Source of the DNA: a virus
Taxonomy: Duplodnaviria; Heunggongvirae; Uroviricota; Caudoviricetes
Virus record (IMG/VR): IMGVR_UViG_2548876944_000018
DNA: 12,453 bases
Reading direction: 5' to 3' (one strand)
Shown: one piece after another, positions 1,750 through 12,453 of the stretch
Layout of the letters: every line of letters starts with the position of its first letter
Position numbering within the stretch: the stretch's first letter is position 1
Made by a program: the position numbers and the translations under genes
Notes under the pieces: model-generated
Seen by the model: the letters and a program-made list of their open reading frames with translations, nothing else
Database searches by the model: none
Told to the model about the DNA's origin: nothing

Positions 1750-2520
1750 ATGCAAAAATTCCATTACGTTTATCACACCACTATTAAATCTAATCGCTCT
1801 GGTAAAATCTATCATTACGTCGGAAAAAGAACAACCACAAATCTAGACGATGGATATGTGGGATCGGGTAAAGTTATTAAAATGATGAAGCGTAAAAATA
1901 AAGAATCAGAAACCCCGATATATGAATTTGAAGTTGTTCGTTCAAAATTGTTTGATACTGCCGAGGAAGCGTTTGAATGTGAAATCCTGTTAGTGGAGGC
2001 AGCACGCGAAAAATGGGGGCGTGGTGTATGTCTTAATATAGCTCCTGGTGGTGTCGGTGGTTTTGATGGTGGTGAAAATCATCCTTTTTACGGAAGAAAA
2101 CATACACCGGAATCTAGAGCTAAAATGTCGGCATCTCGAATGGGTGAAAAGAACCATCGCTATGGTAAACCTAGTGCAATGAGAGGCAAAAAAGTAACAA
2201 ACCCAGAAATATTAGCTAAATTATCGGCTGCTACTCGTGGAGAGAATAACCCCCGTTATGGTAAACCTGTATCAGAAGAAACACGCGAAAAGATTAGAAA
2301 AGCACATCTAGGGCGCAAGCGACCAGAAAGCTCTACCAAGAAATATACACATTCTATACGTATTGCTAAAGGTCAAGGCTGTTGGCAGCATTACGATGAA
2401 ATCCGGCGCGTGTGGATTGAAAACGGTAAACCCGGCGCGGTTAAATTGAGTCAAATCATGGTTAGCTTAGGCCATCCAAAATACAACCTTCGTAGAATGT
2501 ACGAAGACTTCAAGAAATAA
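1750..2520 (+). CDS. GIY-YIG family homing endonuclease with three NUMOD3 repeats (Seg / I-TevI-like), 256 aa
   Basis: N-terminal HYVY...YHYVGKRT (GIY-YIG-like module), FECEIL (compare FECSIL in I-TevI as recalled) and LNIAPGG (conserved Asn region). Three NUMOD3-type repeats follow: NHPFYGRKHTPESRAKMS, NHRYGKPSAMRGKK and NNPRYGKPVSEETREKIRKAH, then a basic C-terminal tail. The gene is visibly more AT-rich than the flanking tail genes. Confidence 0.85.
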   Translation: MQKFHYVYHTTIKSNRSGKIYHYVGKRTTTNLDDGYVGSGKVIKMMKRKNKESETPIYEFEVVRSKLFDTAEEAFECEILLVEAAREKWGRGVCLNIAPGGVGGFDGGENHPFYGRKHTPESRAKMSASRMGEKNHRYGKPSAMRGKKVTNPEILAKLSAATRGENNPRYGKPVSEETREKIRKAHLGRKRPESSTKKYTHSIRIAKGQGCWQHYDEIRRVWIENGKPGAVKLSQIMVSLGHPKYNLRRMYEDFKK

Positions 2521-2566: not shown

Positions 2567-2986
2567 ATGCTAAAAACTAGGCTTATCACCGATTACATCA
2601 ATTCTTTAATAGGTCAGGAGTTCGTTCAAGGCGAGAATGATTGCAATATAATTGCATGTAAGATCATCGATATTCTCGCTGGTACTGACCTATATAATTC
2701 TCTTTATAAAAAATATTCAACGAAAGAAGAAGGCTTGAAAATCTGCAAAGAATTAAGCGGATACACAAATATCCTTCAACCAATTAAGAAACATTTCAAA
2801 CTAGTCACTGATGATTTACAGGACGGCGACTTACTGGTCACAGCCCACAAATTAGGAAACCGCAAATATTATTCCGTAGTTCCTCATTATTCCGGTTATG
2901 GCCTCGTTGAAGAAGATGGTATCTGGATGACCATTCCTGTTTCAGACATTGACTATGAACAAGTTTATAGATTCGGGGGTGAATAA
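2567..2986 (+). CDS. Tail assembly/tail tip protein (gpK position), possibly NlpC/P60-like, about 139 aa
   Basis: The track ORF starts at 2552, but the ATG at 2567 has GGAGGT 7 nt upstream. Its stop overlaps the J-like ATG (TAATG at 2984-2988). It contains a DC dipeptide (GENDCNII) and downstream His residues, loosely reminiscent of a Cys-His peptidase. The call is mostly positional. Confidence 0.5.
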   Translation: MLKTRLITDYINSLIGQEFVQGENDCNIIACKIIDILAGTDLYNSLYKKYSTKEEGLKICKELSGYTNILQPIKKHFKLVTDDLQDGDLLVTAHKLGNRKYYSVVPHYSGYGLVEEDGIWMTIPVSDIDYEQVYRFGGE

Positions 2987-5900
2987 TGGGATTTGAAATA
3001 TTAGTAGGCGCGGTTATTGCTGGTGCGTCTGCTGGGATGGCTGCTGCTGCAACATTTTCTGTTATGACCGCAGTCGCTATCGGTATGGCTGCTGGTGCAA
3101 TGACCTTGATCGCTTCCACTGTAGGCGCACCAAAAACACCGAAAGTACAAAGCTCAGATAATGCGGTGACACTAGGAACATCAAACGATCCGAAAGCGGT
3201 GATACCAGTCGTTTTCGGTACTACCCGCACTGGCACAAACTGTGTTTACAAAGCAGTTTCTAAGCAAGAAAACAATAAGCTAGTGCAAATCTTCTCTGTA
3301 GCCGAGGGTGAAATCGACCATTACAAAGCACTCTTTATTGATAATAAAAACGTTCTCATTAGCCAGAATATGACAATTCGTGATGGCATTCTCGATAAAG
3401 GAAACATTAAAGACGAATACCGCAAAGTGTTAGAAGTCGAGTTTCGCACTGGTAAAAATCCTAACACTGCATTGGATCTGGCTAAACATCATTTGGGCGC
3501 AGATTGGGATGATCGGTATCAGGGTAACGGCATTGCGACCATGTGTATTGTGTTACGTCGTGACGATAAATCTTTGGCTGCTGGTGTTGATATCCTTCAA
3601 CCAAATAGCCAAGTGGCAGTCGATGTTATGGGCTTAAAAATCCGTAACCTCGAAACCAATGCTATTGAGGCAAGCACTAACGGCGTGGACCAGATTTTCC
3701 ATTATCTGACAAATACAAAGTATGGTCTTAGTGTACCGATTGAAAATATTAACGTTGATTCATTCCTGAAAGTGCGTAAACAAGTACGCCAGATGGACCT
3801 ACATTCCAACGGTGCATGTGATCCGAACGCCAGCTTTAAAGAGAACTTGACCAGTCTTATGCAGACTTTCGGCGGGGTAATGTTCGAATCCTTCGGAAGA
3901 ATTACCCTGAAACTGGATGCTCCTGATATTGTTAAGCATACCTTCAATGAAGACAATATCATGATGGGTAAGGTATCACTGAAAACAGGTGGCACTAACG
4001 GTTATTTCAATACCATTAACGCGATGTATCAAGAACCATCAATCGACTATTCAGAGCAAATGCTACGTTATCCGGCTGATGCTGAAAACGATGCTACTAT
4101 TCGTCAAGATGGTCGAATTATCGCTAAAGATATTGAATATCGTTTTGTTAAGTCTAAAGCCCAGATTGATAAACTAGCGAGTGTAGAACGAAATAAATCT
4201 CGTATCACTCAGGTTATCAGCTTTATGACTACTGACGCATTCACTGCCGAAGTGTGGGATGTTATTAGCGTTACCTATGATGAATTGAAACTGAATAATT
4301 CACTTTGGCGCATTACTGCAATTGATCGTTCTATTGATTCTGGTATTGCTGGGATGATGACTATCACCGCTACAGAATATAATTCTCAGGTTTATACTGA
4401 CCTGAACTATGCGGCGACTCCAGACAATAGACCTACTGGTTTACCGGATTCAATGACAGTACAGAAGCCTACTAATTTCAGAATTAAGGCAACTGGTGAG
4501 ACAATCCACGGTAAAAACGTAACTTTGACATGGGATGCACCGGAAGATTTCAACCGTTATGGTTTCCAGATTGATTATCGTGTGAGTGGATCACCTAACT
4601 GGATTAAGCTGGGACAGACTTCACAGCAAATTTTCAATATCAATGCACTGGCAAAAGATCGCTCCTACGATTACCGCGTTTGTGCTTTCGGTATTATTGC
4701 TCGTTCCGAATGGGTGGAACTGGTTAACCAGAATCCTACTGTTACCTATGAATTGCCTACGCCAGTGATCCGCATCAAAAATCAGGGTAGTTCACCTGGT
4801 ACTTTCGAAGGCAATGATCTGATTATCGAATGGGAAAATCAGCAACAATTAGATGTGATGATCAACGGTGAAGCTAACAAGTTTAGTGACCTGTTTGAAG
4901 CATACATTATCAAGGTAACTAACAAGGCTGGTAAGTCTATTCAGTACCGTACCCGCGATCCTGAATCATGGACTTATACGCTTGATATGAACCAGTTTAA
5001 CGGCCTTTCGCGTCAATTGACGGTAGAAGTATCCGTTAAGGGCTATAACAACTCAGAGAGCGCCCCAGCGCGTTTAGTGGCTATCAACCCACAACATAAG
5101 CCGATGAAAGGTTTTAGTGCGCGTGGTGGCTTTAATACTGCGTTTGTTAGCTGGGCGGATGACGTAGAACATGACTATGCAGGGTCAATCATTCAGTATG
5201 CAACCGATAACACTTTCTCCGATGCAAGGGCAGTGACTACCAATAGCGTTAGTCATACTTCCTTTGATTTGGCTGACGGTGATTATTATATCCGTGGTGC
5301 TCACTATGATATTTTCGGTATGGATGATGCTGTTTGGTCCGAACCGTATTTCATGCAAATGAAATCTACCATTAGCTGGGACGATCAGGACAAAGAAGCA
5401 CTGGAAGACCTGATCGGTTTACAAGATCGATTAGATGAAACTATCGCGGATGCTATTAAGCAAGCTGGCGCTAATGCCGATGCTAAAATTGATGCAATGC
5501 ATAAACAGATTACTACCGAGACAGGGCAGACGGTCCAAGCCTCAGCCGATACTCTCAAGAGTCTGATTGCTACCAGTGAGCAAGCCAGCGCAACTAAGAT
5601 TGATCAGGTTAAAGCTGAACTGAAAGGCGATATCACCAAAGAAGTTAGCGCATCCGCTACTACCCTGAAACAAGCAATTGCTACCAGTGAGGCAGCAAGC
5701 GCAAGTAAGATTGATCAAGTTCGGGTAGAAATGGATGGCAAGATTGCTGGTGTGAATCAGGAAGCAGATGTAAAAATCGATGCTTTGAAGGGAACCATTA
5801 ACAGCAAATATAATCTGGCAGTTAATGCAGATGGTCGCGTGGCTGGTATTCATATGAGCGCAACCAATGATCCGGCAGAACCGACAAGAATCATCTTTAC

Positions 5901-6732
5901 GGCTGATAAAATCGCGGTAGCTCCACAAGACGGATCCGAAGTTTGTCCGTTTGGCATCGAAGATAACAAAGTTTATCTTGATAATGCGATGATTCGTAAT
6001 GCTGCAATTGGCACAGCCCAGATTAGTGATGCGGCTATTACCACGGCTAAGATCGGCACAGCCCAGATTAACGGCGCTCACATCCAACACGCACAGATCG
6101 GAACGGGTCATATCATTGATGGCTCTATCGATAATGCTAAAATTGGTAACTATATCCAGTCTTATAACTGGAATGGTAACGATGGATGGTATATCGGCAA
6201 AGATGGCACTTGTCATTTTAGACACGCTAATATTCGTGGTCATTTGGTGGCTGATTCCGGCGAAATGAACAACGTAACGATTAATTCAAGTTGCCGCATT
6301 TTGGGTATGCTTGATGCTAATCAGGTGCGTGGTGACTTCGTGAAAGTGGTTGGTAGGAGTTTCCCACATCGTCAACCAAACTGGCCTGATGGTGCAATCA
6401 CTGTAAGGGTCGAAGATGATCATCCATTCGATCGCCAAATAGTGATTCCAGCGATTCATCATAACGGGTCTGTTCGTCGTGGCGAAAGTAGCGATCATTG
6501 GGATACTTGCCGACTAATCGTTAAGAAAAATGGTGGTGTTCTATATGATCGCACTGCAACTTCTGGCTGTATGTACAGTGGAGTTATTGACATGCCAGCC
6601 GGACACGGGGCAGTAACAATGACTTTTGAAGTTTACTGTAAGGGCGTTAACAACTATAACCCAAGTGCATATATCAGCGATCTAACGGTAATGGTAACTA
6701 AGAAAGCCGCTACTGGTATTTCTGTTTCTTAA
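2986..6732 (+). CDS. J: Host specificity protein J-like central tail fiber / tail tip protein, 1248 aa
   Basis: A 3.7-kb ORF at the end of the tail operon with a GGGGG Shine-Dalgarno. The middle contains fibronectin-III-like segments (for example NVTLTWDAPEDF...YDYRVCAFG). The C-terminal ~130 aa contain DDHPFDRQIV, VIDMPAG and MVTKKAATGISVS, which closely match the lambda gpJ C-terminal receptor-binding region as I recall it (DDHPFDRQIV, IVDMPAG, MVIKKQALGISVV). Confidence 0.9.
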   Translation: MGFEILVGAVIAGASAGMAAAATFSVMTAVAIGMAAGAMTLIASTVGAPKTPKVQSSDNAVTLGTSNDPKAVIPVVFGTTRTGTNCVYKAVSKQENNKLVQIFSVAEGEIDHYKALFIDNKNVLISQNMTIRDGILDKGNIKDEYRKVLEVEFRTGKNPNTALDLAKHHLGADWDDRYQGNGIATMCIVLRRDDKSLAAGVDILQPNSQVAVDVMGLKIRNLETNAIEASTNGVDQIFHYLTNTKYGLSVPIENINVDSFLKVRKQVRQMDLHSNGACDPNASFKENLTSLMQTFGGVMFESFGRITLKLDAPDIVKHTFNEDNIMMGKVSLKTGGTNGYFNTINAMYQEPSIDYSEQMLRYPADAENDATIRQDGRIIAKDIEYRFVKSKAQIDKLASVERNKSRITQVISFMTTDAFTAEVWDVISVTYDELKLNNSLWRITAIDRSIDSGIAGMMTITATEYNSQVYTDLNYAATPDNRPTGLPDSMTVQKPTNFRIKATGETIHGKNVTLTWDAPEDFNRYGFQIDYRVSGSPNWIKLGQTSQQIFNINALAKDRSYDYRVCAFGIIARSEWVELVNQNPTVTYELPTPVIRIKNQGSSPGTFEGNDLIIEWENQQQLDVMINGEANKFSDLFEAYIIKVTNKAGKSIQYRTRDPESWTYTLDMNQFNGLSRQLTVEVSVKGYNNSESAPARLVAINPQHKPMKGFSARGGFNTAFVSWADDVEHDYAGSIIQYATDNTFSDARAVTTNSVSHTSFDLADGDYYIRGAHYDIFGMDDAVWSEPYFMQMKSTISWDDQDKEALEDLIGLQDRLDETIADAIKQAGANADAKIDAMHKQITTETGQTVQASADTLKSLIATSEQASATKIDQVKAELKGDITKEVSASATTLKQAIATSEAASASKIDQVRVEMDGKIAGVNQEADVKIDALKGTINSKYNLAVNADGRVAGIHMSATNDPAEPTRIIFTADKIAVAPQDGSEVCPFGIEDNKVYLDNAMIRNAAIGTAQISDAAITTAKIGTAQINGAHIQHAQIGTGHIIDGSIDNAKIGNYIQSYNWNGNDGWYIGKDGTCHFRHANIRGHLVADSGEMNNVTINSSCRILGMLDANQVRGDFVKVVGRSFPHRQPNWPDGAITVRVEDDHPFDRQIVIPAIHHNGSVRRGESSDHWDTCRLIVKKNGGVLYDRTATSGCMYSGVIDMPAGHGAVTMTFEVYCKGVNNYNPSAYISDLTVMVTKKAATGISVS
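5539..5760 (+). repeat. Imperfect tandem duplication of about 111 bp (37 codons) inside the J-like gene
   Basis: ATTGCTACCAGTGAG occurs at 5566-5580 and 5677-5691, and AAGATTGATCA(G/A)GTT at 5596-5610 and 5707-5721, both with a 111-nt offset. The peptide units are ASADTLKSLIATSEQASATKIDQVKAELKGDITKE and VSASATTLKQAIATSEAASASKIDQVRVEMDGKIAG. Confidence 0.75.
6001..6150 (+). repeat. Ten consecutive pentapeptide repeats (A-x-I-x-x) inside the J-like gene
   Basis: Translation reads AAIGT AQISD AAITT AKIGT AQING AHIQH AQIGT GHIID GSIDN AKIGN, with Ile at a strict 5-residue period. GGCACAGCCCAGATTA is repeated at 6010-6025 and 6055-6070. Confidence 0.7.
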
Positions 6733-6750
6733 AATTTAATTCTAATAATT

Positions 6751-6792
6751 AATCCCGCTTAATTCTTTTGAGTTAGGCGGGATTATTTTTAT
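6751..6792 (+). terminator. Rho-independent terminator after the J-like gene
   Basis: AATCCCGCTTAA (6751-6762) pairs with TTAGGCGGGATT (6773-6784): an 8-bp GC-rich stem plus 3 bp with one mismatch, around a 10-nt loop, followed by ATTTTTAT. Confidence 0.7.
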
Positions 6793-6837
6793 CTAAATAA
6801 TTCTGCCATTAAATTATATAAAAATATCGGGGGCGTA

Positions 6838-7116
6838 ATGACTGAAATTATATATGGCGGTATCGGTGTTATCGCCTTAATTTGTGGTGGGCTTTGGAGA
6901 CTTCACCGAAATCAATTAGCCACAGAAAATAGATTGTCGAAATTGGAATCCAGCGACGCATTGTTAAACCAGAAGTTTGAGACGATGCAGAATAACCATA
7001 CTCAGATTGCTGAACGTGTTTACCAAATGGAACAAACACTACACGGTATAGAGAAGAAAGTGGTTGCGATGGACGCCAAATTTGACCAAGTTCTCGACAT
7101 ACTCAAACAAAAATAA
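6838..7116 (+). CDS. Membrane-anchored coiled-coil protein, 92 aa (possible lysis or exclusion protein, holin/spanin-like)
   Basis: ATG with GGGGG 6 nt upstream. It has an N-terminal hydrophobic helix (IIYGGIGVIALICGGLW) followed by about 70 aa of charged, heptad-like sequence. No homolog was recognised. Confidence 0.6.
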   Translation: MTEIIYGGIGVIALICGGLWRLHRNQLATENRLSKLESSDALLNQKFETMQNNHTQIAERVYQMEQTLHGIEKKVVAMDAKFDQVLDILKQK

Positions 7117-7134
7117 TAATAAAGGGGTGAATAT

Positions 7135-7305
7135 ATGAAGAATAAACTTAAGAAATATTTTGGTTATCTCTTGATTGTCGCCCTCACTTATAACGTAGCT
7201 ATTAGACCTCTGCTAACGTCCTTTGGGCTTGAACTCCCGGCTATGACCGTGGATGAACAATTGCTAAGGACACTGGCGGGGGGCTTTTCGTTATTAGGGG
7301 GCTAA
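7135..7305 (+). CDS. Small membrane protein, 56 aa (not in the supplied ORF track)
   Basis: My own translation gives MKNKLKKYFGYLLIVALTYNVAIRPLLTSFGLELPAMTVDEQLLRTLAGGFSLLGG. GGGGTG lies 6 nt upstream of the ATG, and the ORF exactly fills the gap between neighbouring genes (TAA at 7303-7305, next ATG at 7307). It has a basic N-terminus followed by one hydrophobic helix. Confidence 0.5.
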   Translation: MKNKLKKYFGYLLIVALTYNVAIRPLLTSFGLELPAMTVDEQLLRTLAGGFSLLGG

Positions 7306-7306
7306 C

Positions 7307-7990
7307 ATGGCAACCAGTACCAATAAACGAAACGCTCTAAGGACAAAGAAAGCGTTACGCCAATGGACTGATAAAGCAACCGATACATTCGAAAGGGCGA
7401 TAGGTGAAGGGGCGATCTTTGCTGCTCGTGCACTCCAGAAGAAGATTAACAAGAATGTTGATAGACCTACTCGATGGACTCAGCAAGCTGTAGGTAATAC
7501 CAACTACAAGAACCGATCAGGGACGAGACACCAAATCTTCATCAAGGGCGCAAGGGATAAGGACAAGAAGATCGGCAGTCAGGATGACTATCTGAAACAC
7601 TATTTCGATGGTGGCAAAATCAATAAGCTAGTGCCAATCGCCAACGGCAAGGTCTTAGACTCCCACGGGAACATTAAGGCCATTAAAGGCGGTAAGATGA
7701 TGCGTAACATCGAAAACGGCAACTTCATCAAGGTAGAGAACAAGGAAGGGACTTTTATCATGAAGAAGTACAAGCCTAAGAAATCCCGAACCAAACGCGC
7801 TAAGAATGGATCGGCGGTGGCAAAACGTCGCTTAGAGAAACGCATCCAGAAACAGAGTAAGCGAATTGTTGCCGTTAAGTCGGATAAAATTTCTACTCGT
7901 TATTCGACGCTAGGATCGTGGGAAAGCAACGAGGAAATGATGCTTAAGAACATTAATAAGCACATTAAATCGCGCATGAGATACGTTTAA
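7307..7990 (+). CDS. Highly basic (Lys/Arg-rich) hypothetical protein, 227 aa
   Basis: ATG with GGGGG upstream, tightly packed with its neighbours. Basic residues are abundant throughout, especially KKYKPKKSRTKRAKNGSAVAKRRLEKRIQKQSKR near the C-terminus. No catalytic motif was recognised. Confidence 0.7.
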   Translation: MATSTNKRNALRTKKALRQWTDKATDTFERAIGEGAIFAARALQKKINKNVDRPTRWTQQAVGNTNYKNRSGTRHQIFIKGARDKDKKIGSQDDYLKHYFDGGKINKLVPIANGKVLDSHGNIKAIKGGKMMRNIENGNFIKVENKEGTFIMKKYKPKKSRTKRAKNGSAVAKRRLEKRIQKQSKRIVAVKSDKISTRYSTLGSWESNEEMMLKNINKHIKSRMRYV

Positions 7991-8028
7991 TCCATAAATA
8001 CCCTCATAGAATCTTATGGGGGTATAAC

Positions 8029-8376
8029 ATGGCTAAAAATATTTTCACTGAATTTCCTACTTATCCGGTCGATCAGCTTTCCGGTATTTTTATTAATGGC
8101 ATTAGCCCAGAATCAATGACCTATGATTTTGAGGCGAAGAGAGTTAAACATAAACAATATAAAGAATGTATCCGCGATCATGAAAAAGGGACCGTGTTTT
8201 GTGTCGCTACATTGGCTAAACGTCCTAAATATCGTTTTCGTGTAGGGCAAGAAGTTGATGTGGTTAATCCTTATAGCTTTAACTGTCTGGGCGATGCACG
8301 CGCGGTGTGTGTAGGTACTGCTCCTTATTACATCAAGGGTATGCGCTTTATTGGTTATATCTTCGAAATGATCTAA
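8029..8376 (+). CDS. Hypothetical protein, 115 aa
   Basis: ATG with TGGGGG upstream; the Shine-Dalgarno lies in the 3' arm of a short hairpin (CCCTCATA / TATGGGGG with one G-U pair). No motif was recognised. Confidence 0.65.
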   Translation: MAKNIFTEFPTYPVDQLSGIFINGISPESMTYDFEAKRVKHKQYKECIRDHEKGTVFCVATLAKRPKYRFRVGQEVDVVNPYSFNCLGDARAVCVGTAPYYIKGMRFIGYIFEMI

Positions 8377-8385
8377 GGGGGTAAT

Positions 8386-8739
8386 ATGTTAAGCAAACAT
8401 TTTTCTCGCAAGGAATTTAAATGTAAATGCGGAAAATGTGATTATGATACAATCGACGCTGAATTACTGGTAATTCTTGAGGATGTACGAGAGCACTTCG
8501 GGAAGCCAGTAATTATTAACAGTGGGAACCGTTGTCCGACTCATAATAAGAATGTTGGCGGCGCAACCAATAGCTATCATGTTCGAGGCCGTGCGGCTGA
8601 CATTGTTATCAAGGGTGTCTCACCTGATATTGTTCATGCTTATCTTGATGGGAAATATCCTACTCAATACGGCTTAGGAAAATATAAAACATTTACGCAT
8701 ATCGATTCCAGATCAAAAAAATCACGGTGGAATGGATAA
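8386..8739 (+). CDS. Peptidase M15 family (DD-/LD-peptidase fold) cell-wall hydrolase, probable endolysin, 117 aa
   Basis: AGGGGG Shine-Dalgarno. FSRKEF...INSGNRCPTHNKNVGGATNSYHVRGRAADI matches the conserved SG(Y/N)R...HN...GG...S.H..G.A.D core of small phage M15-type peptidases. A CKCGKC cysteine cluster lies near the N-terminus. Confidence 0.8.
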   Translation: MLSKHFSRKEFKCKCGKCDYDTIDAELLVILEDVREHFGKPVIINSGNRCPTHNKNVGGATNSYHVRGRAADIVIKGVSPDIVHAYLDGKYPTQYGLGKYKTFTHIDSRSKKSRWNG

Positions 8740-8929
8740 AACAAAAGCGCCTCTGGTGGGCGCTTTTTTGTTAGAATATGCTGGCGACGTTAGCTATATT
8801 TCTGACCATTTTTTCATTATAGACAAATATACCGCAGACGATAAAGTCGTTTTTGACGAAGTAGATCCGTCTCTGGTTGAAGTAATGAAAGAACCGGAAG
8901 ACCTAGAGCTTGATTTAAGCCAATTATAG
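8732..8929 (+). CDS. Doubtful small acidic ORF, 65 aa
   Basis: The ATG overlaps the last 8 nt of the M15 gene and the frame reads straight through the terminator hairpin. No properly spaced Shine-Dalgarno is present (GGTGGA ends 1 nt before the ATG). The C-terminus is strongly acidic (EVMKEPEDLELDLSQL). Confidence 0.2.
   Translation: MDKTKAPLVGAFLLEYAGDVSYISDHFFIIDKYTADDKVVFDEVDPSLVEVMKEPEDLELDLSQL
8743..8770 (+). terminator. Rho-independent terminator at the end of the plus-strand block
   Basis: Perfect 9-bp stem AAAAGCGCC (8743-8751) / GGCGCTTTT (8759-8767) with a 7-nt loop, followed by a T6 run. The upstream A tract makes it potentially bidirectional. Confidence 0.8.
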
Positions 8930-8953
8930 ACTCTCTAACGCAATTAAATTAAA

Positions 8954-8975
8954 AAGGGGTACGGATGTACCCCTT
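8954..8975 (-). terminator. Stem-loop terminating the minus-strand block (perfect 9-bp palindrome)
   Basis: AAGGGGTAC (8954-8962), loop GGAT, GTACCCCTT (8967-8975). On the minus strand it is followed by TTTTTAATTTAATT. It lies 37 bp downstream of the last minus-strand gene. Confidence 0.6.
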
Positions 8976-9011
8976 AAAGCGTTTGGTTCGTTATACGGCG
9001 ATTTAGGCCGC

Positions 9012-9269
9012 CTATGATTTATTTTCTTGTTCTATGAAAATCTTTCTCACCTCATCAGAATAAATGTCTAGTGATTCCTCATAACATTTTCTGTATTCAT
9101 CGTAATTACTGGTGGTCTTTTGACATAGCAATTTCAATGTCTTATGTGCTCCATCAATGAAAGCATCTTTTCTATAGGTTAGCGGTCTACGCATTTCTTG
9201 GTCTACGGTTGCCAATGCCAAGCAAGAATTCATAGATAAAATCAAACCTAAAATCTTAATCATCTTCAT
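9012..9269 (-). CDS. Small secreted protein with a signal peptide, about 85 aa
   Basis: The track start at 9284 is TTG. The first ATG (9269) gives MKMIKILGLILSMNSCLALA followed by TVDQ, a typical signal peptide with an A-x-A site. The mature part has two Cys residues. The ATG lies 4 nt after the recombinase stop. The region is AT-rich. Confidence 0.6.
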   Translation of the reverse strand: MKMIKILGLILSMNSCLALATVDQEMRRPLTYRKDAFIDGAHKTLKLLCQKTTSNYDEYRKCYEESLDIYSDEVRKIFIEQENKS

Positions 9270-9273
9270 TAGC

Positions 9274-10953
9274 TTAAATTCCAAATTCTTGTAATGGACC
9301 TGGTATTTCTTCTTCTGGTTTCCAGTTCTTATCTGTCAGCATGTCTAAACATGGATGCAGAACAAGCCCGTTACTCTCCAGAATCTGCCTATCATTGATA
9401 GTCTTCAAATCAACGAAGATCCGGCCTTTCCTCGGTCCTCTTGAATTTTCTATTACAACTCTCTGGGTCTTGCCATCGATGTATTCCAGTACAAACAAGT
9501 TTTTGTACTTGTCAATCCTGCTACACCCGATCCGTTTTAGAGCTTGCTTAATCTTAAACCGGACCTTAATGCGATCCTCGTTGTAAACATCTTCTAAATC
9601 AAATTCTGCGAGCTTCTCCCAGCCTTGAGAGTCAACAGAATACATTTCCTCTTCTGCCATCTTAAGTTGATTGTAGAGTGTTTCACGCTCGCTATTGAGG
9701 GTAGTAATCTGATCGGCTAGCTCCTTCGTTGCTCCTGTCATAGCAGAAAGGGTAATCAGGTTATCAATCTTGCGTGATATTTCATCAATCTGTACTTTCA
9801 AAGCCGGAACCGGATTAGCCTTATCTTCAGCAATCCAGATTTTATCAGCCAGCAATTGCAATACAGCTTTCTCTAATTGGTCGCCGCGAAAACTCCAGTT
9901 TGTATGCACACATTCAATACGACTAGAGCGCATTGCATCGCATGAATAACGATATTGGTTAGGCCGTCTGTTTGTTCCTTTCACCTTAACCATAGCGGAA
10001 CCGCAATGTTCACATTTCAATAGACCAACACCACTAAGCAAGGGAATAGGTTTAGCTTCTTCTTTGTCTCCAAAGTTACATGCTCTAACACCAATGCTTT
10101 TCTTAAGGTGATAAAACTCAGCGTCATCTAGCACACGAGGATAATAATCCTTTAACTCATACTTAACGCCATCTACAGAGATTTCCTTGATACCAATCAA
10201 AGCGCGGGTATGGAACAACCTTTCAATCATTGCCCGTGACCAGTTTGAATGCCTCTTGTGACTTGCGGCTGGTGGTGGTGTGTATGTCGCGTTAAGGTGA
10301 TCCAGTATCTCGGCGGTTGACCGTCCATTCCTGCGTAATTCCACAACTTCCTGAACAATAGGGAAGAAGACCGGATGAGGAAGCACATAACCAGATGTGG
10401 TATCAGTCCACCACATATTCTTTCCAATTTCCTCGATTGCAACAGCCGGATTTTGTGGATTTTCTTGATGAGCTTTAATCTTAATCAGTGCGCTTGAGTT
10501 AGTACGATTGCGCTTAGTCTGGCTTTCCTCATTACCACGGATGAATAAAAGGATGGAGAACATCAGGTCCATCGGGTTAGCGGTAACAGTATCAAGCGAG
10601 TAGATCTTGTTATCCATGCCAGTAACAATGGTTATCCCCCTACGGATGATTGAAAGGAATAACTCCTGCGCACTGACAATATCGGCACGGGATAAACGGT
10701 CCAAGTTTTCGATGAATAGCCAGCTACCAACAGGAACGGATCTACCTATTGCATCAAGGAAACGAGATAGCGCCCCTGTTTTGGAGTTAGCACCCTTAAA
10801 CGCAGATACACCCAGATCCTGATAATCATTTACCAGTTCAAGGTCATACTTTACCGCAATCTCTCTAGCCATCCTGATTTGTCGTTCATAACTCGAACCA
10901 TCATTCTGACGCATAGACGAGAAGCGAATATACGAATACAGTTTAGTTTTCAT
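9274..10953 (-). CDS. Large serine recombinase (serine integrase family), about 559 aa
   Basis: N-terminal resolvase-type catalytic motif YSYIRFSSMRQ...SYERQ with the nucleophile Ser near residue 10. A Cys-rich zinc-ribbon segment (CEHCGSAM...YRYSCDAMRSSRIECVH) and a coiled-coil region (ALKVQIDEISRKIDNLITL...) follow. The track start is TTG at 10968; the ATG at 10953 is preferred. Confidence 0.9.
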   Translation of the reverse strand: MKTKLYSYIRFSSMRQNDGSSYERQIRMAREIAVKYDLELVNDYQDLGVSAFKGANSKTGALSRFLDAIGRSVPVGSWLFIENLDRLSRADIVSAQELFLSIIRRGITIVTGMDNKIYSLDTVTANPMDLMFSILLFIRGNEESQTKRNRTNSSALIKIKAHQENPQNPAVAIEEIGKNMWWTDTTSGYVLPHPVFFPIVQEVVELRRNGRSTAEILDHLNATYTPPPAASHKRHSNWSRAMIERLFHTRALIGIKEISVDGVKYELKDYYPRVLDDAEFYHLKKSIGVRACNFGDKEEAKPIPLLSGVGLLKCEHCGSAMVKVKGTNRRPNQYRYSCDAMRSSRIECVHTNWSFRGDQLEKAVLQLLADKIWIAEDKANPVPALKVQIDEISRKIDNLITLSAMTGATKELADQITTLNSERETLYNQLKMAEEEMYSVDSQGWEKLAEFDLEDVYNEDRIKVRFKIKQALKRIGCSRIDKYKNLFVLEYIDGKTQRVVIENSRGPRKGRIFVDLKTINDRQILESNGLVLHPCLDMLTDKNWKPEEEIPGPLQEFGI

Positions 10954-10960
10954 ACCATTT

Positions 10961-11002
10961 CCAAACAAAAACGCCCCTACCGCGTATTATAACGATAGGG
11001 GC
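10961..11002 (-). terminator. Rho-independent terminator immediately upstream of the recombinase gene, with TATAAT in its loop
   Basis: On the minus strand: GCCCCTA(T)CG, loop TTATAATACG, CG(G)TAGGGGC, then GTTTTTGTTTGG. The T tract ends about 8 nt before the recombinase ATG. Confidence 0.6.
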
Positions 11003-11016
11003 TAGGTGATTAAAGA

Positions 11017-11436
11017 TTAAAGAATTTCACGGCAGCTAATCAGGGAATAAGACGTATCACCTTTTTTAACATCAAATATAGGCGCGCCATCTACAGAATG
11101 CAGATATTTGATGTAGGATTTACCATCTTCGGAACCATAATATTCTTCTTTCTCGTTCTTATCTCCTTTCAGTTTTGGGCTTTTGATTGTTTTATCAAAT
11201 ACCGGATCGTTGAAAGCAAATTGACTATTATCATCATTCACTCGAACCTTTACACCGATAAAACCACGGTATTTGCCAGACGGCGCATGATAATAACGGT
11301 CGCCATCACTCAGGTAGCGTGTATCATCTCCTTTATATTCGAAGTAGGAATTGCACACATAATAGGTATAGGTATTAGCATTCGCAGCACCAACCAAACC
11401 CAGAGCAAGAACAACACCAGCGATAATCTTTTTCAT
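11017..11436 (-). CDS. Secreted (periplasmic) Tyr-rich protein with a signal peptide, 139 aa
   Basis: Strong Shine-Dalgarno (AAGAGGAAA) upstream. The N-terminus MKKIIAGVVLALGLVGAANA followed by NTY is a canonical Sec signal peptide. The mature protein has one Cys near each end. No homolog was recognised. Confidence 0.7.
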   Translation of the reverse strand: MKKIIAGVVLALGLVGAANANTYTYYVCNSYFEYKGDDTRYLSDGDRYYHAPSGKYRGFIGVKVRVNDDNSQFAFNDPVFDKTIKSPKLKGDKNEKEEYYGSEDGKSYIKYLHSVDGAPIFDVKKGDTSYSLISCREIL

Positions 11437-11481
11437 AGTAGAATTTCCTCTTGTTGTTTGAATTACGATATATTTATATCA

Positions 11482-11604
11482 TTAAAAGTTAATGCTAATA
11501 ATCAGACCAAACACAACCGCACCAATCAAATCAATCCAGTTAATACACAGCGAATATTCTTTCTTGAATGTCTTAGATGAAATGCCATCATGAAATTGTT
11601 TCAT
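11482..11604 (-). CDS. Micro-ORF, 40-aa peptide with a C-terminal transmembrane segment (not in the ORF track)
   Basis: My own translation gives MKQFHDGISSKTFKKEYSLCINWIDLIGAVVFGLIISINF. GGGGTGAG lies 5 nt upstream of the ATG, which begins 3 nt after the stop of the preceding micro-ORF. Confidence 0.4.
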   Translation of the reverse strand: MKQFHDGISSKTFKKEYSLCINWIDLIGAVVFGLIISINF

Positions 11605-11607
11605 TGC

Positions 11608-11688
11608 TCACCCCATACTAACGACAATATAAGAAAGACTAATCATGGTTGTGAGACTACCTCCCACGAATGAGATAAAAGCTAACAT
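11608..11688 (-). CDS. Micro-ORF, 26-aa hydrophobic peptide (not in the ORF track)
   Basis: My own translation gives MLAFISFVGGSLTTMISLSYIVVSMG. GGAGA lies about 8 nt upstream. It sits directly after the repeated intergenic stem-loop and directly before the 40-aa ORF. Confidence 0.3.
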   Translation of the reverse strand: MLAFISFVGGSLTTMISLSYIVVSMG

Positions 11689-11704
11689 GTTTGATTCTCC
11701 ATTT

Positions 11705-11740
11705 AAAAAGCGGTGGGAATTACACCCACCAAATTAGAAA
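11705..11740 (-). repeat. Intergenic stem-loop element, copy 1 (terminator-like on the minus strand)
   Basis: Plus-strand CGGTGGG-AATTACA-CCCACC-AAATTAGA. On the minus strand this reads TCTAATTTGGTGGG...CCCACCG followed by CTTTTTAAA. It lies directly after the stop of gene 11745-12131. Confidence 0.55.
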
Positions 11741-11744
11741 TTAA

Positions 11745-12131
11745 TTAAGCGCGAACGATGGTCAGAGTATCCAGCAAACCTTTTTCGTATAATTCGAAAC
11801 ACGTTTTATATTGCTCAATCTTCCAACCGTAGCGGGTGATCTTATTCAGTAGAATAATCACGGTATTCTCATCTAGGTATTGTCCTTGCTTACCAATTAC
11901 ATATGACTCGCGGGATAGTCTCAGCTTACGGAAACCTTTAACACCTAATTCCTTAGCCACCGCTTTAACCTCGTTAATCTCACCTTCTGCGGCTACATAT
12001 TCAGCGTCGATAATCTCAGTTGATGATCTCAGTGCTACCAGAACTAAGGCCATTGCTTCTTCTTCGGTACGAGCAACACCAGCTTTCTCGAAAGTCATCT
12101 CACCAAATTTACGAGTCATAATATTGAACAT
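11745..12131 (-). CDS. Hypothetical protein, 128 aa
   Basis: Clean ORF on the minus strand between the two copies of the stem-loop element. Only a weak Shine-Dalgarno (GGAA) precedes the ATG at 12131. No motif was recognised. Confidence 0.65.
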   Translation of the reverse strand: MFNIMTRKFGEMTFEKAGVARTEEEAMALVLVALRSSTEIIDAEYVAAEGEINEVKAVAKELGVKGFRKLRLSRESYVIGKQGQYLDENTVIILLNKITRYGWKIEQYKTCFELYEKGLLDTLTIVRA

Positions 12132-12150
12132 TGTCGTATTCCGTTTAAAT

Positions 12151-12180
12151 CGGCGGGAATAGTACCCGCCAAATTAGACA
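12151..12180 (-). repeat. Intergenic stem-loop element, copy 2
   Basis: Plus-strand CGGCGGG-AATAGTA-CCCGCC-AAATTAGA. It has the same 6-bp stem and 7-nt loop geometry and the same AAATTAGA flank as copy 1, with a compensatory T:A to C:G change in the stem. It lies directly after the stop of gene 12181-12453. Confidence 0.55.
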
Positions 12181-12453
12181 TTACTTCTTGCTGATAAACT
12201 CTTTAGCGATAAAGTTGATTACTTCTTTCAGCTTCTTGTCTGTATCGATGCACGCTGGTAATTCTTCTTTAATATCCTGCGGCAGATACACATTGCCTTT
12301 AAAGTGGAGGAAACCATCATTACCAATCATGTAGGAGAACATCCATTCACAATCGTTATCCGCTTCCCAGAACGCCACGGTCTCATCCCCAATCAAGGTA
12401 ATGTCCATGTTGCGACGCGCTGCGTAGTTGATGATTGCTTTACCGATGTTCAT
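12181..12453 (-). CDS. Hypothetical protein, 5' end at the window edge (possibly partial)
   Basis: The frame is open to the last base of the window. An ATG sits exactly at 12451-12453, but the true start may lie beyond the window. No motif was recognised. Confidence 0.55.
   Translation of the reverse strand: MNIGKAIINYAARRNMDITLIGDETVAFWEADNDCEWMFSYMIGNDGFLHFKGNVYLPQDIKEELPACIDTDKKLKEVINFIAKEFISKK

Follow-up and report, generated by a model that had tools for sequence, protein, structure and literature searches.

The window examined here is a stretch of 12,453 nucleotides (nt) of a tailed-phage genome, taken from the IMG/VR record IMGVR_UViG_2548876944_000018, and its minus strand carries a gene for a large serine recombinase of 559 amino acids (aa). 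We are highly confident that this gene encodes the integrase of a temperate, siphovirus-like prophage of Escherichia coli and Shigella. The whole prophage is about 36-38 kb long and is bounded by the two halves of the host gene hicB.

The recombinase and its prophage

9274..10953, minus strand: gene of the large serine recombinase (the probable integrase); open reading frame (ORF) with an ATG start, 559 aa plus stop codon

The longest possible version of this ORF has 564 aa and starts from a TTG at 10968. A preliminary description of the window, made from the sequence alone, had listed the recombinase at 9012-11002; this span is wider than the gene and also covers a separate 85-aa ORF and a hairpin upstream of the recombinase.

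Three Pfam domains were found in the protein, and all matches exceeded the curated cut-offs: Resolvase (PF00239) at residues 6-153 (2e-14), Recombinase (PF07508) at residues 198-286 (1.5e-7), and Zn_ribbon_recom (PF13408) at residues 310-368 (7e-10). The same scan gave no tyrosine-recombinase domain. In PHROGs the protein matched phrog_95, 'integrase' (7e-58), and far more weakly a 'DNA invertase' family (6e-11), while its label in RefSeq is just 'recombinase family protein'. The N-terminus, Y8-I-R10-F-S12-S-M-R-Q16, carries the nucleophile motif of serine recombinases (Y8-x-R10-x-S12-x3-Q16). In an alignment of 56 homologues, R10, Q16, D85, R86, and R89 were invariant and S12 was nearly invariant; the zinc-ribbon cysteines C314, C317, C338, and C348 were invariant both in this alignment and in a second alignment, of 13 homologues.

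When the PDB was searched by sequence, neither the single protein nor a profile gave matches beyond the catalytic domain, so that a predicted structure was needed. The AlphaFold model, based on the 56-homologue alignment, had a mean predicted local distance difference test score (pLDDT) of 84. It contained two long helices (residues 381-406 and 410-438) inserted between zinc-ribbon elements, which are predicted to form the coiled coil expected of serine integrases, and an additional beta-rich C-terminal part at residues about 472-533. When this model was compared with the PDB by Foldseek, ranks 1-16 were all serine integrases (E = 6e-17 to 3e-6), with 9dxf, 9dxd, 9dxh, 9y66, phiC31, the Listeria large serine recombinase 4kis, and Bxb1 as top matches. 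The alignments reached 585-614 columns, and TM-scores were low, as expected for flexible multi-domain chains. The best matches over the whole length were the Listeria A118-type LI integrase (4KIS), phiC31, and Bxb1, all of which have the same order of catalytic domain, recombinase domain, and zinc ribbon with inserted coiled coil. The window enzyme shares only 12-16% identity with the solved serine integrases in the structural alignments, and it differs from the characterized ones in its enterobacterial host and in its extra beta-rich segment (~472-533). Therefore, the serine recombinase of about 559 aa with zinc ribbon and coiled coil that the preliminary description had proposed, a serine rather than a tyrosine enzyme, was borne out by Pfam, the AlphaFold model, and Foldseek, and the domain search that it had suggested returned the resolvase, recombinase, and zinc-ribbon domains.

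The identical protein was listed in 671 blocks of an assembly collection. The 24 blocks with the longest contigs were read, and in all ten loci displayed, nine of which are NCBI assemblies, the same prophage end lies beside ydcR-ydcSTUV-patD. The closest homologues of the recombinase were mostly E. coli and Shigella sequences. Of 5426 complete E. coli genomes, 60 contained the window region, and 31 of the 5426 (about 0.6%) had the junction of this prophage in hicB. In every copy the recombinase lies 1.0-1.7 kb from the junction, and in the copies with the identical protein it is about 1.5 kb inside the prophage end. IMG/VR contains prophage predictions of 35-36 kb that are trimmed at gene boundaries, and the window matches the last 12.4 kb of one such record.

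In the genome NZ_CP024134.1, a 37,970-bp element splits hicB, with the C-terminal fragment of hicB beside the recombinase end and the N-terminal fragment 38 kb away, adjoining hicA. This element contains terminase, portal, capsid, tail, and lysis genes, a Rha-like regulator, and two insertion sequence (IS) elements. Apart from the transposases of IS1 and IS4, its sole annotated recombinase gene is the one for the 559-aa protein. The prophage in the genome of UTME-9 has complete structural and lysis modules. No tyrosine recombinase or other integrase was annotated in these two complete prophage copies. The temperate or integrative lifestyle that the preliminary description had proposed agrees with a whole prophage bounded by hicB, and its alternative of a recombinase-mobilized cassette is not needed; the search for prophage junctions that it had recommended yielded prophage copies in host genomes, with ends mapped at hicB, and no invertase-style repeats were found near the gene.

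Attachment sites and choice between hicB and ycdX

The junctions were aligned with the empty site of E. coli K-12. In NZ_CP024134.1, a repeat of TTGCCAA was present at both ends. In a second lineage, that of UTME-9, the hicB junctions read ...TTTAGGT-TT-CCCTAATATAATG... and ...ACATTTAGGT-TT-GCCAATTCGCC..., and attP and attB have TTTAGGTTT in common instead of TTGCCAA. The shared stretches of the two lineages overlap only in TT, which marks this dinucleotide as the point of crossover, 43-44 nt past window position 12453. The attB in hicB is ...CTCCTGTTTAGGT-TT-GCCAATTCGCCTGG..., and the reconstructed attP of about 50 bp is TATTTTGGGTTGACTACATTCGGG-TT-GCCAAATATTATGTACCCACAATA (also written TATTTTGGGTTGACTACATTCGGGTTGCCAAATATTATGTACCCACAATA).

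The best dyad centre of attP is the crossover TT, with matches at 16 of 24 positions, a value reached by 4 of 2000 shuffled sequences. Neither the symmetry of attB nor that of the second-lineage attP was significant alone, but the best dyad centre of the latter was still TT. The hybrid sites arise from short attP and attB sequences with a 2-nt crossover, a feature of large serine integrases. The solved serine integrases, too, use short sites with a crossover of 2 nt and an attP of about 50 bp whose symmetry is imperfect, as in the structural model of the family (PMC3783163). Many integrases of the solved type also integrate, like the window enzyme, inside a protein-coding gene. The 559-aa protein has every testable defining feature of large serine integrases. 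No contiguous attP, as expected of a circular or tandem form, was found in the complete E. coli genomes, where the attP halves were always apart, at hicB or ycdX.

From the mechanism of the family (PMC3783163), integrase dimers would bind the ~50-bp attP and the site inside hicB, and synapsis would proceed through the coiled coil. Both sites would then be cut at the central TT with Ser12 as nucleophile, followed by rotation and religation. Excision should need a directionality factor encoded by the phage.

Integration cuts hicB within its helix-turn-helix, after ...ELARRIG101 (L011 40627-40956, minus strand; loci of relatives are given by L numbers). The truncated HicB has 109 aa, of which the 8 at the end are phage-encoded; no replacement C-terminus is supplied, and hicA is intact alongside. 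Judging from these sequences, the regulation of hicAB may change in lysogens.

Relatives whose recombinases are 86-92% identical to the window enzyme were found as prophages in ycdX. The E. coli recombinases of the hicB and ycdX prophages are mosaics. The window enzyme and another hicB-type enzyme are 94% identical, and 31 of their 36 differences are in the catalytic domain (residues 1-160). With ycdX-type enzymes it shares 92% identity, and only 2 of the 45 differences are in the catalytic domain. All four hicB-type sequences are separated from all three ycdX-type sequences by 28 positions, 23 of which are within residues 176-351 (recombinase domain and zinc ribbon) and none within 1-160; the remainder are 401, 460, 482, 483, and 507. 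In these sequences, the choice of site goes with the alleles of the recombinase domain and zinc ribbon and not with those of the catalytic domain. UTME-9 (NZ_CP157110.1; L110 and L111) has two related prophages, at hicB and at ycdX, and in both the recombinase is of the type that matches the site; a ycdX-type enzyme is also encoded in NZ_CP024131.1. This co-variation of enzyme type and site is strong indirect evidence that the 559-aa protein is the integrase, and it narrows down the determinants of specificity.

Related prophages were also found elsewhere, and each of their insertion sites had a TT[G/C]CC motif with a similar AT-rich phage arm after it. Insertion in ycdX, seen in E. coli, Salmonella, and Edwardsiella, is at the codons of its HPGNPKY motif. 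A relative in Escherichia fergusonii is inserted in a cytosine-permease-like gene, and one in a metagenomic contig is inserted in a FAD-oxidase gene. We also noticed that more distant relatives from other Enterobacteriaceae (L034, L036, and L039; 31-33% identity) are apparently at the same HPGNP codons of ycdX.

Several points weigh against the gene being the integrase of a temperate phage with these specificity determinants. No sequenced phage isolate resembles the element: against 50,697 phage records, the window DNA gave one 42-nt match only, and no named phage could be assigned. Some copies carry IS insertions, so that a fraction of the population may be defective. In the non-structural part of the prophage, neither replication nor repressor genes were recognized. 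Among the 28 positions, some may differ neutrally, having been inherited along with the two groups of alleles.

The first three of these points would fit a defective, fixed remnant whose recombinase is a relic that no longer moves it, as would the IS1 and IS4 in the NZ_CP024134.1 copy and one genome whose recombinase region contains IS elements. We consider this explanation improbable, while individual IS-bearing copies are possibly dead remnants. Hundreds of assemblies have the ORF intact and almost unchanged, the prophage is limited to about 1% of complete E. coli genomes, which come from unrelated sources, and different sites are occupied with matching enzyme types, including in a double lysogen. 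Together with the complete structural and lysis modules of UTME-9, the intact ORF, the patchy presence, and the multiple sites suggest recent mobility.

Even less probable, to the point that we give it very little weight, is an accessory serine recombinase (a tail-fibre DNA invertase, a resolvase, or a YbcK-like protein) in a prophage integrated by another enzyme. The gene is near tail genes, the protein has the weaker 'DNA invertase' match in PHROGs, and its nearest proteins in E. coli phages are YbcK-like (30% identity), which are not known integrases. However, another integrase was absent from the annotation of both complete copies, the gene keeps its short distance from the junction in every copy, and the integration site co-varies with the DNA-binding domains. 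The 559-aa chain with recombinase, zinc-ribbon, and coiled-coil parts also departs from the invertase layout of about 190 aa, and the inverted repeats in 6700-12453 are weak and at chance level only (14-30 nt, 70-89% complementarity). The small invertases and resolvases (Hin, Gin, and Pin; Tn3 and gamma-delta resolvase) have about 180-200 aa, a C-terminal helix-turn-helix, and repeat sites close to the gene, a pattern from which the 559-aa recombinase departs. An invertase or resolvase fits neither the size and the domains nor the lack of convincing inverted repeats, and this reading was rejected.

The hairpin upstream of the integrase gene

The preliminary description had called the gene insulated by terminators, and the hairpins on its two sides make this a fair description of the sequence:

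10963..11002, minus strand: terminator-like hairpin with T-run upstream of the recombinase gene (terminator scan, RNA fold, conservation in relatives)
10986..10991, minus strand: TATAAT in the loop of this hairpin, a perfect hexamer and candidate -10 element (promoter function inferred)
8954..8975, both strands: GC-rich hairpin at the boundary between the recombinase unit and the convergent late genes (scan, RNA folds)
8743..8775, plus strand: hairpin GCGCC-TCTGGTG-GGCGC followed by the T-run TTTTTTGTT (sequence, inverted repeat I15, entry in the opposite-strand scan)

The terminator scan called 7 sites in 8600-12453, where 2.9 +/- 2.1 were expected. In the upstream hairpin, a stem-loop of 11 pairs at 11002..10973 (minus strand) is followed by GTTTTTGTTT at 10972-10963. 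The hairpin lies 14 nt past the stop codon of a 139-aa gene. A terminator had been noted 8 nt upstream of the recombinase start; the hairpin is indeed there, but the gap from its T-run to the ATG is 9 nt. Its RNA fold had a free energy of -21.9 kcal/mol (z = -3.3), and none of 200 shuffled sequences folded as well. The hairpin at 8954-8975, downstream of the recombinase, gave z = -4.3 on the minus strand and -4.5 on the plus strand and is probably a bidirectional terminator. The hairpin at 8743-8775 lies directly 3' of the endolysin stop codon and probably ends the late operon.

A GC-rich hairpin with a T-run right before the recombinase start was present in every relative of at least 59% protein identity. 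On the upstream side, genes and sequence differed between relatives as far as the stem's 5' edge, which indicated that the hairpin travels with the integrase gene and not with the cargo genes. At least five versions of the stem were found (GCCCCTATCG, GCCCTGCT, GCCTCGC, CCCCTTGC, and GCCCTGAC), and all of them pair and keep the T-run. Pairing kept despite the change in stem sequence points to a structure that actually forms, and the upstream hairpin is likely an intrinsic terminator. The hairpin with TATAAT was absent from 53 distant relatives (up to 40% identity), showing it to be a feature of the close clade only. In relatives at this distance, the integrase is mostly right beside the junction.

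The TATAAT that had been reported in the terminator loop was confirmed at 10991-10986 (minus strand), and it is conserved in most relatives, as follows.

Window lineage: in the loop
E. coli/E. fergusonii lineage with another upstream gene: in the loop
Salmonella L013: in the loop
Salmonella L102: in the loop
Edwardsiella L017: loop is exactly TATAAT
L104/L105: perfect TATAAT, 2 nt 5' of a different stem
L106: weaker -10-like hexamer only, 5' of the stem
L100/L108 (one E. coli lineage, two loci): weaker -10-like hexamer only, 5' of the stem

This conservation gives some support to the idea, also from the preliminary description, that a promoter is embedded in the terminator. TATAAT occurs 12 times on the two strands of the window, without excess over chance (about 1 per 2 kb per strand); at this background, the chance of meeting the hexamer in a particular 8-nt loop would be low, roughly 1 in 700. 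In the window, a start about 7 nt past TATAAT (near 10979) would lie within the 3' arm of the hairpin; in every lineage with TATAAT, such a start would lie inside the hairpin, and the transcript would be unable to form the terminator.

Two readings of this arrangement were weighed. In one, with about an even chance of being correct, the hairpin serves only to end transcription of the cargo gene before it, and TATAAT does not act as part of a promoter. Transcription of the integrase would then depend on read-through or antitermination from a phage promoter further upstream, or on a promoter at another place. The L100/L108 enzyme is 86-87% identical to that of the window, and this lineage keeps the hairpin and T-run, but its loop is CTAGC, which contains the stop codon of the upstream gene; L106, too, is without a perfect TATAAT. 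The -35 candidates at 17 bp (TTTAAT, TTACTA, TTCACC, and TTTTCT) each match the consensus at 3-4 of 6 positions, and the promoter scan of the window called no site at the loop TATAAT. The lineages with TATAAT in the loop may just share ancestry. On the other side, TATAAT is constant across different loop lengths and stem sequences (window, L013, L102, and L017) with flanks that cannot be aligned, a perfect TATAAT stands 2 nt 5' of a different hairpin in L104/L105, and the hexamer is infrequent in the window.

In the second reading, which we put forward tentatively and at somewhat less than an even chance, the loop TATAAT would be the -10 element of the integrase's own promoter. Against it count the absence of TATAAT from the loop in the L100/L108 lineage, the poor -35 matches, and shared ancestry, which makes conservation alone a weak proof. 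As an intrinsic terminator, the upstream hairpin would shield the integrase gene from transcription of the small cargo genes toward attP. Transcripts from the loop -10 would start inside the hairpin and so escape termination, which is the less certain part.

Three readings that go further than a known kind of integrase were also considered, and we rate them as less likely than not. First, the hairpin would stop transcription from the cargo genes, and a -10 in its loop or at its 5' stem edge would launch transcripts that, having no 5' arm, continue past the T-run. Second, 28 or fewer substitutions in the recombinase and zinc-ribbon domains would have shifted a 92%-identical integrase from ycdX to hicB with attP almost unchanged, giving a natural retargeting series. 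Third, truncation of HicB would make lysogeny a reversible switch of hicAB regulation, in analogy to the active lysogeny by serine-integrase phages of Firmicutes.

We noticed a separate arrangement in beta-proteobacterial relatives (L049-L073; 26-31% identity), in which many recombinase starts directly follow a small inverted repeat. The loops of these repeats hold a -10-like hexamer, for example ACCCGCAAAATGCGGGCATG and CCTGCATAATCGGGTGTATG, and the repeats are a few tens of nt from the apparent host junction. These sequences suggest leaderless integrase mRNAs with promoters that overlap the phage arm of the attachment site.

Neighbouring genes and related systems

The recombinase gene is convergent to tail and lysis genes on the plus strand, as had been described beforehand, and is followed and preceded by small genes on its own strand:

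2986-6732, plus strand: GpJ-like tail tip gene (Pfam, PHROGs)
8386-8739, plus strand: M15 endolysin gene (Pfam, PHROGs)
9012..9269, minus strand: 85-aa ORF (translation); starts 4 nt after the recombinase stop codon
11017..11436, minus strand: 139-aa gene of unknown function (ORF), between the recombinase and the prophage end
11745..12131, minus strand: 128-aa gene, phrog_14908, function unknown (ORF, PHROGs)
12181..12453, minus strand: 90-aa gene, phrog_6147, function unknown (ORF, PHROGs), the last before the prophage end

Other plus-strand genes of the window are a baseplate-hub-like gene, a NUMOD3 gene, and a DUF6950 gene. Between the recombinase and the lysis genes lies a cargo slot of variable content, which in the window contains the orphan 85-aa ORF only. 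The same slot holds other genes elsewhere (L013, L019, L102, L108, L110, and L111), and its contents in relatives include CapR-domain proteins, a UvsW-like helicase, a UvsY-like gene, or a GIY-YIG nuclease. The UvsW-like helicase gave weak PADLOC matches to PbeA and restriction helicases. The 85-aa ORF is unannotated in RefSeq and had no match in Pfam, PHROGs, or PADLOC; a homologue search returned near-identical copies only, and its N-terminus resembles a signal peptide (MKMIKILGLILSMNSCLALA/T). We considered this ORF as a directionality factor, a role that is disfavoured by its near-identical-only homologues and its signal-peptide-like start.

The 139-aa gene had no match in Pfam or PHROGs and a marginal match only in PADLOC, in which the recombinase and its small neighbours were otherwise without a match. 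A promoter-like site called by the promoter scan precedes it at 11655..11626 (minus strand), and a terminator-like hairpin lies downstream of the 128-aa gene at 11731..11711 (minus strand). The 139-aa gene is exchanged for other genes in other lineages, and the whole set of small genes between the recombinase and the prophage end varies by lineage. The three small genes at 11017-12453 (minus strand) resemble separate units of the moron type. Plausibly, cargo genes entered the interval between attP and the integrase in the past, and the hairpin shields the integrase from their transcription.

Some further features of the prophage were observed. A 256-aa gene with a NUMOD3 domain, of the homing-endonuclease type, lies between two tail genes (1750-2520, plus strand); it was present in the window and in L002/L011 and missing at the same position in L001, L003, and L111, so that its presence varies among otherwise collinear prophages. 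An annotated 65-aa ORF (8732-8929, plus strand) overlaps the endolysin stop codon and contains the hairpin and T-run of 8743-8775 in its first 45 nt, which makes it a doubtful gene of the late operon. Directly after the tail tip gene, a hairpin AATTAATCCCGC...GCGGGATTATTT is found at 6747-6788 (plus strand). Weak sub-threshold Rfam matches to VrrA and SQ2397 overlap it and are probably chance matches to a terminator; Rfam and tRNA searches of the window gave nothing relevant. The non-structural part of the prophage includes 1.2-1.5 kb without an annotated gene (L011 35176-36421 and L111 32061-33553), and the L011 stretch has no ORF of at least 55 aa either, except one 56-aa GTG ORF.

Among sequenced phages, the proteins closest to the recombinase were those of the Burkholderia phages Bcep176 (gp53), JC1, and Bcep22, with 27-30% identity over 85% of the length. 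Some of these records annotate a serine recombinase or integrase; the enzymes are distant in sequence and belong to other phage types and hosts. YbcK-like proteins of lambdoid E. coli phages (4A7, Perceval, and others) share about 30% identity over 80% of the length and belong to the same three-domain family. These lambdoid phages are integrated by tyrosine integrases, and YbcK is not known to have a defined role. In the window prophage, unlike in these phages, the serine enzyme is the only recombinase, lies near the prophage end, and tracks the integration site.

The preliminary description had compared the position of the gene with the integration module of lambdoid phages. Topologically this comparison stands: as in the int region of lambda, the integrase gene adjoins the att site past the late genes, runs on the opposite strand from them, and has its expression separated from transcription of its neighbours. 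The orientation, however, differs. In the window prophage the integrase gene has its 5' side toward attP, and the three small genes lie in the interval; in lambda it is the 3' side of int that faces attP. The int-xis-attP region of lambda encodes a tyrosine integrase, of a different family from the window enzyme, and no adjacent xis was recognized next to the window recombinase. DNA similarity to lambdoid phages was likewise absent in the search of phage records. In the literature available, no paper on prophages in hicB or ycdX turned up, and a search on serine-integrase promoters gave nothing that concerned this element.

The enzyme is of a known kind, a large serine integrase, ordinary in mechanism and membership. 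Of some interest are its defined pair of sites with a TT crossover, the retargeting between hicB and ycdX, the truncation of HicB, and the hairpin that bears a -10 hexamer. The prophage family is present in E. coli, Shigella, Salmonella, E. fergusonii, and Edwardsiella and has no isolate in the phage collection searched. In the copies examined, lysogens with the hicB junction have the HicB antitoxin truncated within its DNA-binding motif, and the conserved hairpin with its -10 hexamer would be a compact regulatory layout. Serine integrases are valued for genome engineering because just two short sites are needed. The window prophage offers a specific, testable attP/attB pair for an enterobacterial enzyme, and its near-identical natural variants that use ycdX reduce the candidate specificity residues to 28 in the DNA-binding domains.

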